Below are positions 10,435-17,007 of a DNA stretch of 31,321 nucleotides, in pieces. The notes under the pieces are model-generated. The model was given only the letters and a program-made list of their open reading frames with translations. It did no database searches and had not been told where the DNA came from. A program made the position numbers and the translations under genes. Each line of letters begins with the position of its first letter. Within the stretch, counting starts at the first letter, position 1. Origin of the DNA: a virus (lineage: Duplodnaviria; Heunggongvirae; Uroviricota; Caudoviricetes); the IMG/VR virus record IMGVR_UViG_2700989487_000010. The stretch is one strand, 5' to 3'.

Positions 10435-11331
10435 ATGCCCGCCGTTGACCTTTCACAGTTACCGGACCCCGCCATCATCGCGGAGCCTGACTTTGAGGCA
10501 ATTCTGGCTGACACAAAGGCCATGATGATTGCGGCTTATCCCGCCGAACAGCGTGAAGCCGTCTCCGCCGCGCTGGAGCTGGAATCGGAACCCCTGAACG
10601 TTATCGCCCAGACAACAGCGTTTCGTGAAATGCTGTTACGCCAGCGGGTCAATGAGGGTGCACGCGCCTGCATGTTAAGCCACAGCGCCGGGACAGACCT
10701 GGACAACCTCGCGGGCAATATGAACACAAAGCGCCTGGTTATCACTCCGGCAACGGATACCACCGACGCGGTGATGGAAAGCGACGCCTCGCTGAGACTG
10801 CGGGCGCAACGGGCGTACGACGGCCTGAGTGTTGCTGGCCCGTCAGGTGCATACTAGTATTTTGCCCGCAGCGCCAGCGGTCTGGTGCGTGATGCGCGGG
10901 CTATCAGTCCGTCTCCGGCAAATGTGACGGTTTCCATCCTGTCCACTGAAGGCGACGGCACGGCAACGGAGGCGTTGCTTAATACCGTTCGCGCCGTTCT
11001 GAATGCAGAGGATACCCGCCCGGTGGCCGACCGCCTGACCGTACAGAGTGCCAGAATCGTGACATGGCGGCTGAATGCAAAACTGTACTTTTACCCCGGC
11101 CCGGAATCCGAACCTATTCTGGCCGCGGCGGAATCGTCGTTCAGGAAGTGGCTGGCTGAGCAGGGGCTTATCGGTCAGGACGTGGCGTTATCCGCCATTG
11201 CTGCCGCACTGCATGTGCACGGTGTGCAACGCGTGGAGATAATCGAACCCACACAGAATATGGCCATCAGCGACATACAGGCGGCGCGCTGTGAGTCGTT
11301 CACCATCAGCGAAGGTGGGCGCAATGAGTAA
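10435..11331 (+). pseudogene. J: Baseplate protein J (P2 gpJ family) interrupted by a single in-frame TAG at 10855-10857
   Basis: ORFs 10435..10857 and 10885..11331 are in the same frame (offset 450 nt); the nine intervening codons are open; combined length of about 298 codons is that expected for gpJ. The TAG lies inside ACTAGT. Confidence 0.7.
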
Positions 11332-11854
11332 TTCGCTGTTACCACCATCAGCCAGCAATTTCATGCGTTGCGCCGAAGCTGTCGGAGCGCGCACTACAAA
11401 CATCCCGGTAGACCTCAACACGCTGTGGTCACCGGATACCTGCCCGGTGCATCTGCTGCCTTATCTCGCCTGGGCATTTTCCGTTGACCGCTGGGATCGC
11501 AACTGGCCGGAAGAGACAAAGCGACAGGTTATTCGTGATGCATGGCTGATACACCGACACAAAGGGACCATCAGCGCACTGCGCCGGGCCATTGAGCCGC
11601 TGGGATACCTCATTCGCGTGTCTGAGTGGTGGGAGTTCGGCGGAGAACCGGGAACATTTACCGTTGAAGTCGGCACGCTGGACAGTGGCGTGACGGAGGA
11701 AATGTATCTGGAAATGGAGCGGTTGATTGCTGATGCCCGCCCGGTCAGCCGCCACATGACAGGGCTGAATATCATTCAGGAAATTCCGGGGGATATTTTC
11801 GCAGCGGCGGCAACTTATGACGGTGAAGTTATTACCATTTACCCAGGCGATTAA
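11324..11854 (+). CDS. I: Baseplate protein, P2 gpI family
   Basis: ATG at 11324 overlaps the J stop; about 176 aa; precedes the tail fibre gene as in P2. Confidence 0.8.
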   Translation: MSNSLLPPSASNFMRCAEAVGARTTNIPVDLNTLWSPDTCPVHLLPYLAWAFSVDRWDRNWPEETKRQVIRDAWLIHRHKGTISALRRAIEPLGYLIRVSEWWEFGGEPGTFTVEVGTLDSGVTEEMYLEMERLIADARPVSRHMTGLNIIQEIPGDIFAAAATYDGEVITIYPGD

Positions 11855-11856
11855 GC

Positions 11857-14007
11857 ATGAGTACCACAACACGAAAATTTAAAACCGTTATCACCGATAC
11901 GGGTGCAAAAAAATTAGCTCAGGCAGCCGCGCCAGATGGTAAGCCTGTCCGCCTGACTCATATGGCCGTGGGCGACGGTGGCGGCGCGTTGCCCACACCA
12001 GACAGTAAGCAGACCCGTCTGGTGCATGAGGTGTGGCGACACACTGTTAATCGCGTCATCCTGGACGCAACACATCAGAACCGCATTATTGCGGAGCTGG
12101 TTATTCCTCCTGAAACGGGCGGATTCTGGATCCGGGAAATTGGTGTATTTGATGAGCACGGCGATTTAATCGCGGTGGGCAATACTGCCGAAAGTTACAA
12201 ACCAACCGTTGCCGAAGGGTCCGGACGTGCACAAACATTTCGCACTATTCTGACCGTATCCAGCACTGCCACCGTGGCGCTTACCGTGGATAACACCATG
12301 GTGATGGCCACAGTGGATTACGTGGATGACAAACTGAAAGAGCATGAACAGTCACGACGTCACCCGGACGCCTCGCTGACCGCAAAAGGCTTTGTTCAAC
12401 TCAGTAGCGCCACTAACAGCGTGTCTGAAACGCAGGCTGCAACGCCGAAAGCGGTTAAGGCCGCGTATGATCTTGCTAACGGTAAATATACTGCGCAGGA
12501 TGCCAGCACGACGCGAAAAGGCCTTGTCCAGCTCAGTAGCGCCACCAACAGCACGTCTGAAACGCAGGCTGCAACGCCGAAAGCAGTAAAGGCCGCGTAT
12601 GATCTTGCTAACGCAAAATATACCGCTCAGGACGCCACGACAGCACAAAAAGGGATTGTCCAGCTCAGTAGTGCCACCAACAGCACGTCTGAAACATTGG
12701 CCGCGACATCGAAAGCGGTTAAGGCGGTAATGGATGAAACAAATAAGAAAGCCCCATTAAACAGCCCGGCGCTGACCGGAACGCCAACAACACCAACTGC
12801 GCGACAGGGAACGAATAATACCCAAATCGCAAGCACGGCTTTCGTTATGGCTGCGATTGCCGCCCTTGTAGATTCGTCACCTGATGCACTGAACACGCTG
12901 AACGAGCTGGCTGCGGCGTTGGGCAACGACCCGAATTTTGCGACCACCATGACTAACGCGCTTGCGGGTAAGCAACCGAAAGATGCCACCCTGACGGCGC
13001 TGGCCGGGCTTGCTACTGCGGCAGACAGGTTTCCGTATTTTACGGGGAATGATGTCGCCAGCCTGGCAACTCTGACAAAAGTCGGGCGGGATATTCTTGC
13101 GAAATCGACCGTTGCCGCCGTTATCGAATACCTCGGTTTACAGGAAACGGTAAACAGGGCTGGTAACGCCGTGCAAAAAAATGGCGATACCTTGTCCGGT
13201 GGGCTTACTTTTGAAAATGACTCAATCCTTGCCTGGATTCGAAATACTGACTGGGCGAAGATTGGATTTAAAAATGATGCTGATGGTGACACTGATTCAT
13301 ACATGTGGTTTGAAACAGGCGACAACGGCAATGAATATTTCAAATGGAGAAGCCGCCAGAGCACCACAACAAAAGACCTGATGACGCTGAAATGGGATGC
13401 ACTAAATATTCTGGTAAATGCCGTCATTAATGGCAGTCTTGGAGTTGGTACGACGAATGCGTTAGGTGGTAGCTCTATTGTTCTTGGTGATAATGACACC
13501 GGATTCAAACAGAATGGTGATGGTATTCTGGATGTTTACGCTAATAGTCAGCGAGTATTCCGCTTTCAGAATGGAGTTGCTATTGCTTTTAAAAACATTC
13601 AGGCAGGTGATAGTAAAAAGTTCTCGCTATCCAGCTCCAACACCTCCACAAAGAATGCAACGTTTAATTTATGGGGTGCTTCAACCCGTCCAGTAGTTGC
13701 AGAGTTAGGCGATGAGGCAGGATGGCATTTCTATAGCCAGCGAAATACAGATAACTCGGTAATATTTTCTGTTAACGGTCAGATACAGCCCAGCAACTGG
13801 GGGAATTTTGATTCACGCTATGTAAAAGATGTTCGCCTGGGTACGCGTGTTGTTCAATTGATGGCGCGTGGTGGTCGTTATGAAAAAGCCGGACACGCAA
13901 TTACCGGATTAAGAATCATTGGTGAAGTAGATGGCGATGATGAAGCCATCTTCAGACCAATACAAAAATACATCAATGGCACATGGTATAACGTCGCACA
14001 GGTGTAA
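11857..14007 (+). CDS. H: Tail fibre protein, P2 gpH family (Hc constant part plus currently expressed Hv variable part)
   Basis: 716-aa ORF; N-terminal region P2 H-like; three tandem tail-fibre repeat units; C-terminus ...INGTWYNVAQV; a gix-like site lies inside the gene at 13121-13146. Confidence 0.9.
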   Translation: MSTTTRKFKTVITDTGAKKLAQAAAPDGKPVRLTHMAVGDGGGALPTPDSKQTRLVHEVWRHTVNRVILDATHQNRIIAELVIPPETGGFWIREIGVFDEHGDLIAVGNTAESYKPTVAEGSGRAQTFRTILTVSSTATVALTVDNTMVMATVDYVDDKLKEHEQSRRHPDASLTAKGFVQLSSATNSVSETQAATPKAVKAAYDLANGKYTAQDASTTRKGLVQLSSATNSTSETQAATPKAVKAAYDLANAKYTAQDATTAQKGIVQLSSATNSTSETLAATSKAVKAVMDETNKKAPLNSPALTGTPTTPTARQGTNNTQIASTAFVMAAIAALVDSSPDALNTLNELAAALGNDPNFATTMTNALAGKQPKDATLTALAGLATAADRFPYFTGNDVASLATLTKVGRDILAKSTVAAVIEYLGLQETVNRAGNAVQKNGDTLSGGLTFENDSILAWIRNTDWAKIGFKNDADGDTDSYMWFETGDNGNEYFKWRSRQSTTTKDLMTLKWDALNILVNAVINGSLGVGTTNALGGSSIVLGDNDTGFKQNGDGILDVYANSQRVFRFQNGVAIAFKNIQAGDSKKFSLSSSNTSTKNATFNLWGASTRPVVAELGDEAGWHFYSQRNTDNSVIFSVNGQIQPSNWGNFDSRYVKDVRLGTRVVQLMARGGRYEKAGHAITGLRIIGEVDGDDEAIFRPIQKYINGTWYNVAQV
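12385..12740 (+). repeat. Three tandem ~132-bp direct repeats inside H encoding a repeated ~44-aa tail-fibre motif (LSSATNS.SETQAATPKAVKAAYDLAN)
   Basis: Repeat units begin at 12385, 12517 and 12649 (period 132 nt, frame-preserving); the third copy diverges in its second half. Confidence 0.85.
13121..13146. repeat. gix/hix-like invertase crossover site (left), embedded in H
   Basis: ttatcgaatacctcggtttacaggaa is an inverted partner of the site at 15799-15824, sharing the core acctcggtttac, and resembles the Gin gix consensus recalled as TTCCTGTAAACCGAGGTTTTGGATAA. Confidence 0.7.
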
Positions 14008-14010
14008 ATT

Positions 14011-14538
14011 ATGCAGCATTTAAAAAATATTAAGTCCGGAAATCCAAAAACAAAAGAACAATATCAGCTAACAAAGAATTTTGATGTTATCTGGTTATGG
14101 TCCGAAGACGGTAAAAACTGGTATGAGGAAGTAAATAACTTTCAGGACGACACCATAAAGATTGTATACGACGAAAATAATATTATTGTTGCCATAACCA
14201 AAGATGCCTCAACGCTTAATCCCGAAGGCTTTAGTGTCGTTGAGATTCCAGATATAACAGCCAATCGTCGTGCCGATGATTCAGGGAAGTGGATGTTTAA
14301 GGACGGAACTGTGGTTAAGCGGATTTATACAGCAGACGAACAGCAACAACAGGCCGAATCACAAAAGGTCGCGTTGCTTTCTGAAGCTGAAAGCGTTATT
14401 CAGCCACTGGAACGCGCTGTCAGGCTGAATATGGCAACAGATGAGGAACGTACACGACTGGAAGCCTGGGAACGCTACAGCGTTCTGGTCAGCCGCGTGG
14501 ATACGGCAAAGCCAGAATGGCCACAAAAACCAGAGTAA
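14011..14538 (+). CDS. G: Tail fibre assembly chaperone, P2 gpG family
   Basis: 175-aa ORF beginning [30 protein letters not shown]..., matching the recalled P2 gpG N-terminus. Confidence 0.85.
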
Positions 14539-14543
14539 AAATT

Positions 14544-14563
14544 AAGGCCCGATATCGGGCCTT
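14544..14563. terminator. Palindromic hairpin (aaggcccgatatcgggcctt) between convergent G and G'
   Basis: Perfect inverted repeat at the centre of the invertible segment; would serve either orientation. Confidence 0.5.
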
Positions 14564-14566
14564 CTC

Positions 14567-15100
14567 TCATTCTGGTTGTTCGGGAAACGTTACTGGCAGG
14601 CTGGAGGTGTCTGTAGATTCGACTTTCTGCGCATAGAGCATCCACTCGGTTAATTTTTGTTTATTCTCGTCGGAAATGATGCCCAGCCGTAGCTGTGAGT
14701 CCCATAGCTGGGTTTTATCCCTGACAAGTTGCAACAGGCTTTGCTTTTCATTTTCCGCTTGTTGCCTCTGCTCTTCCTCGGTATAAGTTCGCTTTATCAC
14801 TACGCCATCTTTGAACAACCATTTCCCCGAAATATCAGCCCGGCGATTTGCTGTAATATCAGGTAATTCAACGACGCTTGCGCCTTCCGGATTAATTGCT
14901 GAAACATCCTTTTCAATACAAATAATAACGCCGTTATGGTCATAGACCATTTTCAACGTATCTGGCTGGAAATTCTTTTGTTCCTCATACCAGTTTTTTC
15001 CATCATCTGAATAAAGCCATTTGATGTTAAATTGCTTTGTTAGCTGGTATTGCTCTTTTGTTTTAGGGTTGCCAGCAGTAATGTTTTTTAAGTGCATCAT
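14567..15100 (-). CDS. Alternate tail fibre assembly chaperone (G')
   Basis: 177-aa minus-strand ORF beginning [30 protein letters not shown]..., a clear paralogue of G. Confidence 0.8.
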   Translation of the reverse strand: MMHLKNITAGNPKTKEQYQLTKQFNIKWLYSDDGKNWYEEQKNFQPDTLKMVYDHNGVIICIEKDVSAINPEGASVVELPDITANRRADISGKWLFKDGVVIKRTYTEEEQRQQAENEKQSLLQLVRDKTQLWDSQLRLGIISDENKQKLTEWMLYAQKVESTDTSSLPVTFPEQPE

Positions 15101-15102
15101 CG

Positions 15103-15811
15103 TTAAATACTCCCCGCGTTATACCACGTCCCATTAATGCAATACTGAATTGGCCTTGCCTGTGTTGTATCAATTAATTCATCACGGTTTCCGTTAACTG
15201 AACCCGTAACGACATAACCTGACCTGTCAGACCAGCCGGGACCATTCCATGTCTGAACAGATGACAGACCGCCAAGGCGAATACCTGTAATAAACATTGA
15301 GTTACATTCTGCCCGCGTATATGCACCAACATCTCCCGCTGAAGGTTTTCGTGTCGTGGTATAGAAATCTGACCAACCTAATTCAAACCCATAACCATCA
15401 CGAGCCGACCTGTAGGAAATGCCACCATTTTTATAATTCACACGGAATTGTACGGCAGGACAGCTACCAGCATTTATATTAAAGTGAAGAATTAATGCAG
15501 ATGCACCACCAATCAGGGCGTTATATGCACCACTATCCCAATTCCATCCAACGGATGTATCACCATTAACAGTATTACCTGTTTGTCGGAGTGCAAATGC
15601 ATTGACATTTTTGGCACTAATTGAAATATCGCTAGAACCATCAAAACCAACTCCAGCAATTTTTCGTGCTGTTTTCAGCTTTGTTGCAGTAGCGGCATTG
15701 CCGGACAGTTCCCCAGAAAGGCCACCGCTGAATGTTTGTCGATTGGTCCAGGTATTCGCTGTACTGAGTAACGGTATTTTCTCCCCGCTTGTGCCGAGTT
15801 CTCGTAAACCG
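15103..15811 (-). CDS. Alternate tail fibre variable C-terminal segment (H'v); promoterless and start-less, expressed only after inversion as an Hc-H'v fusion
   Basis: The minus-strand frame is open from the right gix site down to the stop at 15103; when joined at the gix centre it continues the Hc frame without a stop; C-terminus ...INGTWYNAGSI parallels the H C-terminus. Confidence 0.75.
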
Positions 15812-15824
15812 AGGTTTTAAATAA
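15799..15824. repeat. gix/hix-like invertase crossover site (right), overlapping the invertase promoter region
   Basis: ttctcgtaaaccgaggttttaaataa, inverted relative to the site at 13121-13146, about 55 nt upstream of the invertase start. Confidence 0.7.
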
Positions 15825-15878
15825 TGGCCGTTTCTGGCCTGCATGGCATGATTTGCGCTTTTGGACGGGAGATTCCGT

Positions 15879-16478
15879 GTGCTGATTGGCTATGTAAGGG
15901 TATCAACAAATGACCAGAATACAGACCTGCAACGAAACGCTCTTGTTTGTGCAGGATGTGAACAAATATTTGAAGATAAATTAAGCGGGACAAAGACAGA
16001 CCGACCGGGATTAAAACGCGCTTTAAAGCGCCTTCAAAAAGGTGACACGCTGGTTGTCTGGAAACTGGATCGCCTCGGGCGAAGCATGAAACATCTGATT
16101 TCTCTCGTCGGGGAACTACGGGAGCGAGGGATTAATTTTCGCAGTCTGACCGACAGCATAGACACATCTTCTCCAATGGGGCGTTTTTTCTTCCACGTGA
16201 TGGGTGCCCTGGCTGAAATGGAACGTGAATTAATTGTTGAACGTACACTGGCCGGGCTGGCGGCAGCGCGCGCAAGGGGGCGCACAGGCGGACGTCGACC
16301 GAAGCTGACAAAAGAACAGCATGAGCAAATAGCAAGGCTAATCAAAAACGGGCACGACAGAAAACAACTGGCAATAATTTACGGCATTGGCACATCGACG
16401 ATTTATCGTTATCACCCTGTAGGCGATATACAGACTGAAGAAACAACCGGGCAGACTCAGGAAAATGAAAACCGCTAA
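15879..16478 (+). CDS. Serine DNA invertase, Gin/Pin/Cin/Hin family
   Basis: Translation from GTG 15879 begins (M)LIGYVRVSTNDQNTDLQRNAL..., essentially the Gin N-terminus with the catalytic Ser, plus a C-terminal helix-turn-helix; GGGAGA RBS 7 nt upstream. The ORF is also open from TTG 15861. Confidence 0.88.
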   Translation: MLIGYVRVSTNDQNTDLQRNALVCAGCEQIFEDKLSGTKTDRPGLKRALKRLQKGDTLVVWKLDRLGRSMKHLISLVGELRERGINFRSLTDSIDTSSPMGRFFFHVMGALAEMERELIVERTLAGLAAARARGRTGGRRPKLTKEQHEQIARLIKNGHDRKQLAIIYGIGTSTIYRYHPVGDIQTEETTGQTQENENR

Positions 16479-16497
16479 TCTGACCATTAGCGGTTTT
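16468..16497. terminator. Bidirectional rho-independent terminator between convergent invertase and U genes
   Basis: Perfect 12-bp stem aaaaccgctaat / attagcggtttt with a 6-nt loop; A-tract on one side and T-tract on the other; overlaps the invertase stop codon. Confidence 0.6.
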
Positions 16498-16506
16498 TGT
16501 GTTAAA

Positions 16507-17001
16507 TCAGAACAGCCCTTTAACTGAACTGGCCGCGCTGTTAAGAGATGATGTCACCTTATCTTTGAAGCCGGACAGCATATCACTGAACGATGAGGAT
16601 TGCAGGCGCTCCCGCAAATCCTCATCACAGCGTTCAAGGGTCAGTGAAAATTCTATCTTTTTCGCCTTACCGTAGCGATCAAACTCGGAACGGGTCGTAT
16701 TCGTTCCGGTCAGGACATACATGCCGTAAATCTGCCCGACGCCATCAATCAGAGGCCAGGGTCGTCCTGTATACGCCTGCGTGGTCAGCAGCGACAGCGA
16801 TACTTCGCCACCTGTAATTTCAGGATAAAGCACACCAGAAAGAACGATGCGATCATCACCTGCACCGATATACTGCCAGCTTGCTGAACGGTTAACGCGT
16901 TCATTTTTCACATGCCGCCAGCTTTTGTTTTGCTGTAACTGCTGATGCGGCAGCGTGCGCAGCTCAAAAACAAACATGCCGTAGATCATCATCATGGCCA
17001 T
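16507..17001 (-). CDS. U: Tail protein, P2 gpU family
   Basis: 164-aa ORF; translation (MAMMMIYGMFVFEL...LSGVLYPEITGG...) resembles P2 gpU; follows the tape measure gene in transcription order. Confidence 0.8.
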   Translation of the reverse strand: MAMMMIYGMFVFELRTLPHQQLQQNKSWRHVKNERVNRSASWQYIGAGDDRIVLSGVLYPEITGGEVSLSLLTTQAYTGRPWPLIDGVGQIYGMYVLTGTNTTRSEFDRYGKAKKIEFSLTLERCDEDLRERLQSSSFSDMLSGFKDKVTSSLNSAASSVKGLF

Positions 17002-17007
17002 GACTCC

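Follow-up and report, generated by a model that had tools for sequence, protein, structure and literature searches.

The G segment of phage Mu is an invertible DNA element in which the invertase gene gin and the gix crossover sites serve two gene sets, S/U and S'/U'. The constant 5' part of the tail-fiber gene is followed by inverted 26-bp sites that enclose two convergent sets of a fiber end and its chaperone, and the invertase gene is located immediately downstream. Inversion is also known from P2-like prophages. In strain E2348/69 of enteropathogenic Escherichia coli (EPEC), a Hin-family invertase switches alternative tail-fiber C-termini of such prophages (Goldberg et al. 2014, PMC4272514). 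Sequencing and polymerase chain reaction showed flipping in this strain, and both orientations coexist in clonal cultures (PMC4272514). Here we analyzed a tail-fiber locus at positions 11857-16478 of a 31,321-nucleotide viral DNA (IMG/VR record IMGVR_UViG_2700989487_000010; hereafter the window). The window is a prophage of the P88 type (Xuanwuvirus, P2-like) in an Escherichia chromosome. Our analysis indicates that its tail-fiber operon very probably contains a two-state site-specific inversion switch of the Gin family. An initial annotation had assigned the locus to this known class of system, and the gix-like sites, the Gin-like invertase and the swapped C-terminus with its chaperone all support the assignment.

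The locus has the same plan as the Mu G segment. Its invertible segment, 13133-15812, is 2,680 bp long, compared to about 3,060 bp in Mu. The EPEC loci are built on pix-type repeats (AAACCTTGGTTTGGGAGAA and similar) and measure 1.6-2.0 kb, and one of them is a shufflon with three sites and four states (PMC4272514). We considered whether the EPEC P2-like inverting loci are the same element and rejected this, because they have pix-type repeats and shorter segments whereas the locus studied here has two gix-type sites centered on TC.

The tail-fiber gene H occupies the open reading frame (ORF) 11857-14007 on the plus strand. Its constant part, Hc (11857-13132), has 425 codons and includes an N-terminal collar domain. 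The rest of the gene, Hv (13133-14007, plus strand), is the variable C-terminus that faces Hc in the sequenced orientation, and is a receptor-binding region of the P2 gpH type. It is followed by G (14011-14538, plus strand), which encodes the tail-fiber assembly protein paired with Hv. Two more genes are located on the minus strand. G' (14567-15100) encodes an alternative assembly protein of the Mu U' type and is silent in the sequenced orientation, and H'v (15103-15812) is an alternative variable C-terminus of H that is open from the site center to its stop codon. The invertase gene (15879-16478, plus strand) is located next to the segment. The ORFs and Pfam domains confirm the layout in the initial annotation, a segment of about 2.7 kb with Hv-G on the plus strand and G'-H'v on the minus strand.

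Both orientations of the segment keep the H frame open. As sequenced, translation from the H start at 11857 gives a protein of 716 aa that ends in ...INGTWYNVAQV. When 13133-15812 was inverted in silico, an uninterrupted H' protein of 661 aa was obtained, which ends in ...INGTWYNAGSI with its stop codon ending at 15103. This inversion reproduced the open frame that had been predicted earlier from joining Hc to the minus strand at the site center. The locus has the architecture of a host-range switch: a constant 5' part outside the segment and two in-frame 3' ends, each followed by its own assembly-protein gene. H'v has no start codon near its 5' end, as expected for a silent cassette, and the list of ORFs gives only a 112-aa ORF that begins at an internal GTG.

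The two orientations were both found in nature. We searched 5,426 complete E. coli genomes with the predicted 601-bp Hc-H'v junction, which spans the left site after inversion, and counted matches over at least 80% of its length. The junction is present in 159 genomes. Several of the matches are 100% identical over the 601 bp, and the match in strain UTI89 is 99.5% identical. The junction of the sequenced orientation, composed of the silent H'v, the right site and the 5' end of the invertase gene, was found in 148 genomes. The native left junction was found in 356 genomes, a count that takes in P2-type H genes with no switch. E. coli O145 strains occur in the lists for both orientations.

A comparison of strains UTI89 and NU14 revealed the inversion at single-base resolution. 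Stretches of 12,601 bp spanning the locus were compared between the two strains, and every base is identical apart from one exact inversion. The breakpoints are confined to a 12-nt core that corresponds to 13130-13141 and 15804-15815 in the window. In the two strains, the genes on either side share protein accessions and chromosomal position, and the two assembly-protein genes swap strand. The invertase in these strains, WP_000905061.1, is 100% identical to that in the window, and the crossover sites are also identical. Since the identical invertase and sites are found flipped between UTI89 and NU14, the genome comparison indicates that this exact combination is active in nature. Our literature search found no paper describing the UTI89/NU14 inversion.

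The silent cassettes are labeled differently in the two strains. RefSeq calls the silent H'v cassette of NU14 (B0908_RS27075) a pseudogene ('incomplete; partial in the middle of a contig; missing N-terminus'), and the silent Hv cassette of UTI89 is annotated as 'hypothetical protein'. Both labels are annotation artefacts of the invertible design and do not reflect gene decay.

Inversions between genomes could in principle be produced by RecA-dependent homologous recombination at inverted repeats and not by the invertase. The segment does contain an inverted repeat of 40 nt and 78% identity, at the ends of Hv and H'v. However, the UTI89/NU14 breakpoints are located in the 12-nt site core and not at this repeat, and a dedicated invertase adjoins the segment. 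For recombination in E. coli, RecA needs identity over far more than twelve bases. We consider an origin of these inversions through RecA extremely unlikely, and attribute them to site-specific inversion by the invertase.

Two crossover sites flank the segment. A repeat search of the window identified an inverted repeat with 30-nt arms, 13117-13146 and 15799-15828, that are 80% complementary. The left gix-like site (13121-13146, plus strand) is located inside H and reads TTATCGAATACC TC GGTTTACAGGAA, with the central TC at 13133-13134. The right gix-like site (15799-15824, minus strand) reads TTATTTAAAACC TC GGTTTACGAGAA on the minus strand, with its center at 15811-15812. The two 26-mers, TTATCGAATACCTCGGTTTACAGGAA for the left site and TTATTTAAAACCTCGGTTTACGAGAA for the reverse complement of the right site, agree at 21 of 26 positions, with ACCTCGGTTTAC as a common 12-nt core and an identical central dinucleotide, TC/GA. 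The sites are oppositely oriented and have identical centers, as is characteristic of the imperfectly palindromic 26-bp crossover sites of the Din family (Gin/Cin/Hin/Pin).

A scan of the 31-kb window with a degenerate site pattern, allowing up to three mismatches, matched exactly these two sites, one on each strand. The expectation from shuffled sequences is 0.07 matches, and two or more matches occurred in none of 100 shuffles. The same scan of the window found no third crossover site of the kind present in the shufflon of one EPEC P2-like prophage. In the Mu record, gix reads TTATCCAAAACCTCGGTTTACAGGAA at both ends of G. The left site agrees with it at 24 and the right site at 22 of 26 positions. 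The inverted 26-bp gix-like sites proposed in the initial annotation are confirmed by the repeat search and the pattern scan, and the repeats do align with gix. The distance between the center of the right site and the start codon of the invertase gene is 67 bp, identical to the spacing in Mu.

The enzyme encoded next to the right site is a small serine recombinase of the Gin/Hin/Cin/Pin group. It is 199 aa long, and its gene most likely starts at the GTG at 15879 and not at the TTG at 15861, because both the position of the Mu gin start and the annotation of Escherichia virus P88_4B11 coincide with the former. Pfam identified a Resolvase domain (E = 1.5e-50) and an HTH_7 domain (E = 4.4e-13), and the protein matches the Gin structures 4M6F and 3UJ3 (E = 3e-100), with the 4M6F alignment spanning residues 1-183. 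NCBIfam contains no specific model for the invertase or for the assembly proteins, and gave only sub-threshold matches to other serine recombinases. The invertase combines a nucleophilic serine with a C-terminal helix-turn-helix, as members of the Din family do. Residues 1-113 are the same as those of Mu Gin at 112 positions, the single change being Lys39 in place of Arg39.

The invertase also retains residues connected with dependence on Fis. The nucleophile Ser9 is present and Met114 is wild type; the Gin M114V substitution gives a Fis-independent mutant (PMC3575834). In Hin, Gln151, Arg154 and Leu155 are uniquely conserved among invertases that depend on Fis and the enhancer (PMC3798978). 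Helix 1 of the DNA-binding domain, HEQIARL, retains the equivalent Gln, Arg and Leu, and the basic helix B, which belongs to the Fis/enhancer contact, is identical to that of Gin. Overall, the protein is a mosaic, with a Gin-like front followed by a diverged DNA-binding domain and an acidic/polar tail of 16 residues. The recognition helix, STIYRY, presumably resembles that of Hin more than that of Gin. A perfect palindrome with a 12-bp stem is located at 16468-16497, directly after the invertase stop codon.

Recombinational enhancers of the Din family combine two Fis sites in cis and lie about 100 bp from one crossover site. In Mu, the enhancer sis is located within the 5' region of gin. Identity to Mu is 91% across the right site, the 67-bp spacer and ~389 nt at the start of the invertase gene, and nucleotides 1-170 of the gene contain only two differences from Mu gin. 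Any enhancer that Mu has in this region is therefore conserved here. The candidate consists of two Fis-like 15-mers, GACCAGAATACAGAC (15912-15926) and GAACAAATATTTGAA (15960-15974), both of which are identical in Mu gin. Their centers are 48 bp apart, and the first center is 107 bp from the center of the right site. The Fis consensus and the geometry of the Hin enhancer (PMC3798978) suggest that these 15-mers may be the Fis sites of a recombinational enhancer at 15912-15974.

Several observations weigh against an active switch with a host-range effect in this copy. The outer half-sites TTATCGAATACC and TTATTTAAAACC differ from their equivalent in Mu gix, TTATCCAAAACC. The DNA-binding domain of the invertase, encoded by the 3' third of the gene (16268-16478), is diverged from that of Gin. 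The initial annotation had placed the right site in the promoter region of the invertase gene. The center of this site is located 67 bp upstream of the start codon, and our sigma-70 scan over 11500-17100 found no sigma-70-like promoter upstream of the invertase gene or around the right site. The Mu gin promoter is likewise weak. In addition, this copy is represented by a single consensus sequence, and an in-frame stop codon in a baseplate gene, described below, may cause the host-range consequence to fail in this lysogen.

The switch could be frozen in this copy, as a relic left by divergence of the sites or the invertase from Mu or by absent expression of the invertase. The limited agreement between the two sites, the diverged C-terminal domain and the failure to detect a promoter all point in this direction. 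However, the invertase protein and the sites are the same as those found flipped between UTI89 and NU14, and genomes of the two orientations occur in similar numbers. The ORF of the invertase is intact, and Ser9 is present. Together these data make a frozen switch very improbable, and by analogy with the two E. coli strains we infer that this copy flips as well.

The products of the locus resemble known receptor-binding and assembly proteins. H contains the Pfam domains Phage_tail_fib and Phage_fiber_2 and a Gp34-trimer-like stretch, and aligns with P2 gpH. Within Hc, three tandem 132-nt units (12384-12779) each encode a 44-aa Phage_fiber_2 repeat. The second and third units are 86% and 61% identical to the first. 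P2 has two such repeats compared to three here, and H of Citrobacter phage Shae_phiSM is 132 bp shorter, with one repeat fewer. The length of the fiber thus differs among close relatives with the number of repeats. Hv is similar to Mu S in its first ~110 and last ~80 residues, is 46% identical overall, and matches chain A of the Protein Data Bank (PDB) entry 5YVQ.

G contains the Pfam domain Caudo_TAP, is a homologue of Mu U and P2 G, and matches chain B of 5YVQ, which is Mu U (E = 5.5e-110). G' also contains Caudo_TAP. The protein is 56% identical to G, and DNA identity to the Mu U' region is 90%. A GC-rich hairpin, AAGGCCCGATATCGGGCCTT, is located at 14544-14563 between the two convergent assembly genes. 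The hairpin resembles a terminator and has its T-run on the minus strand. H'v contains the Pfam domain gp37_C and matches the Mu S-S' fiber structure 8JU3 (E = 5.6e-96). Identity to Mu S' is 88% over the last 165 aa, and the first ~70 aa are unrelated to Mu S' and shorter. The comparison of Hv and H'v with known receptor-binding domains, proposed with the initial annotation, thus showed that both ends match solved Mu structures, S/U (5YVQ) and S-S' (8JU3). The open frames, the pair of Caudo_TAP proteins, these structures and the natural flip also support its view that inversion swaps the receptor-binding C-terminus together with the assembly chaperone.

The following mechanism is suggested by the relationship to Gin. 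Dimers of the invertase would bind the two inverted 26-bp gix-like sites, probably assisted by host Fis bound to the enhancer in the 5' end of the invertase gene. Both sites would be cut at the central TC, and the half-sites rotated and religated, which would invert 13133-15812. Transcription and translation are expected to enter from Hc, upstream of the segment. The variable end that faces Hc would be made, together with the assembly gene behind that end. In the sequenced orientation, the products would be Hc-Hv, with a tip of the P2 gpH type, and G of the Mu U type. In the inverted orientation, they would be Hc-H'v, with a tip of the Mu S' type, the G(-) form, and G' of the Mu U' type. A population of lysogens would then release particles of two receptor specificities, whose actual receptors can be proposed only by analogy. 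Judged by homology, of Hv to P2 gpH and of H'v to Mu S', the two orientations probably differ in receptor specificity and host range.

Two host ranges can be expected only if the phage is viable, and a change in the gpJ homologue limits this prediction. This baseplate gene (10435-11331, plus strand) has 298 codons. The codon at 10855-10857 is GAG (Glu) in P88_4B11 and UTI89 and an in-frame TAG in the window. The TAG splits the gene into ORFs of 140 and 148 aa. Among the complete E. coli genomes, no match over the gpJ region was 100% identical and the best was 99.5%, so the TAG looks private to this copy. If it is real and unsuppressed, no baseplate would be made and the two host ranges would not be realized in this lysogen, with the switch itself unaffected.

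This raises the possibility that the switch is intact and flips without any phenotypic effect, as a passenger module on a defective, decaying prophage. The split gpJ, which is intact in P88_4B11 and UTI89 and seemingly changed in this copy alone, favors this explanation. However, only one base is altered, the TAG may reflect a sequencing error or be suppressed, and all other late genes in the window appear to be full-length ORFs. We regard a switch with no effect as unlikely, though worth keeping in mind. It limits the consequence only and does not contradict the mechanism of a Gin-family inversion switch.

The surroundings of the locus are those of a P2-like prophage. At its right end, the window continues into chromosomal genes of the host (flk, yfcJ, fabB and mnmC), with ~98% identity to E. 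coli. The annotations of P88_4B11 and UTI89 give the P2-like order V-W-J-I-H-G, and ORFs downstream contain the Pfam domains GpU and GPD. The P2 tail operon has the same direction as H-G, with fun(Z) between them. Here, gpU, tape-measure, tube and sheath genes (16507-22092, minus strand) converge on the invertase gene.

Closely related loci are present in deposited phages. Escherichia virus P88_4B11 (NC_049391) is 99.2% identical over 11857-16478, with 36 substitutions in the stretch, and has an identical gene order of tail fiber, two assembly proteins, tail-fiber fragment and DNA invertase. Shae_phiSM (OR565851) is 97.3% identical over 11857-16478, with the same genes annotated. Escherichia phage P88 (KP063541) gave a partial match of 92%. 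All three phages belong to Xuanwuvirus, Peduoviridae. The genes are annotated in the deposited records, and the features listed there mark neither the crossover sites nor the invertible segment.

Similarity to Mu is confined to certain parts of the locus. It is 90% over 13114-13434, absent over 13435-13971, 90% over 13972-15601, absent over 15602-15803 and 91% over 15804-16267, and the sequence is diverged from 16268 onward. Unlike in Mu, the middle of Hv is P2-type and not S-type, and Hc and the rest of the phage resemble P2. The H-G DNA of P2 is 91% identical over 12516-14522 without gaps, and similarity to P2 runs through Hc-Hv-G and ends right after G. The receptor-binding half of H has ~97% protein identity to P2 gpH, seen over the whole C-terminal 480 aa. 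A second site, G'-H'v and an invertase are all missing from P2, in which fun(Z) follows G.

P2 gene H does carry a solo gix-like site, TTATCGAATATCTCGGTTTACAGGAA, at the position homologous to 13121-13146. It has one mismatch from the left site, beside the central dinucleotide, and the same amino acids are encoded. The P2 site may have been left behind when a switch was lost, or may offer a target to invertases that act in trans.

The initial annotation described the locus as a Mu/P1-type module grafted into a P2-type tail cluster. The description holds in part: it fits the right half, where the tip of H'v, G', the right site and the beginning of the invertase gene are Mu-type, and does not apply to Hv-G, which is P2-type. 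The combination of Mu-type and P2-type parts is not new, as comparison with P88, P88_4B11 and Shae_phiSM indicates that they have it too. The switch may have been gained in this lineage or lost in P2, as P2 H itself carries the solo gix-like site and Hv-G is P2-type.

The boundaries of the Mu-like regions coincide with the crossover sites. Next to the left site, similarity begins at 13114. After the unrelated inner flank (15602-15803) it returns at 15804, inside the core of the right site. These boundaries, together with the nearly intact solo site in P2, raise an outside chance that tail-fiber cassettes are moved between Mu-like and P2-like phages by invertase-catalyzed recombination between sites of co-resident prophages, and not by illegitimate recombination. 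The diverged DNA-binding domain of the invertase might have co-evolved with the variant outer half-sites. A similar idea was raised earlier for the inversion regions of P1 and p15B.

The element is already deposited, annotated and common, and about 300 of the 5,426 complete E. coli genomes carry this version of it. It represents a textbook form of bet-hedging in phage host range, and its importance beyond correct annotation is small. Annotations and assemblies will show either of the two tail-fiber genes together with a 'partial' fragment, depending on the orientation captured. Such fragments should not be taken as gene decay or as a difference between strains. In host-range work with P88-type phages or their fibers, mixed populations are to be expected.

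The matching locus in E. coli E110019 has further genes at the right end of the prophage. These encode an ogr/Delta-like zinc-finger protein, a Hok/Gef toxin, a Com-family regulator and a DNA methyltransferase, followed by flk, and correspond to ~24400-26240 in the window. The methyltransferase (25447-26238) was considered as a homologue of Mu Mom, and thus as a possible second module of Mu origin. This was rejected, as the enzyme is an N6_N4_Mtase with no similarity to Mom. A Com-like regulator beside a conventional methylase is an unusual pairing.

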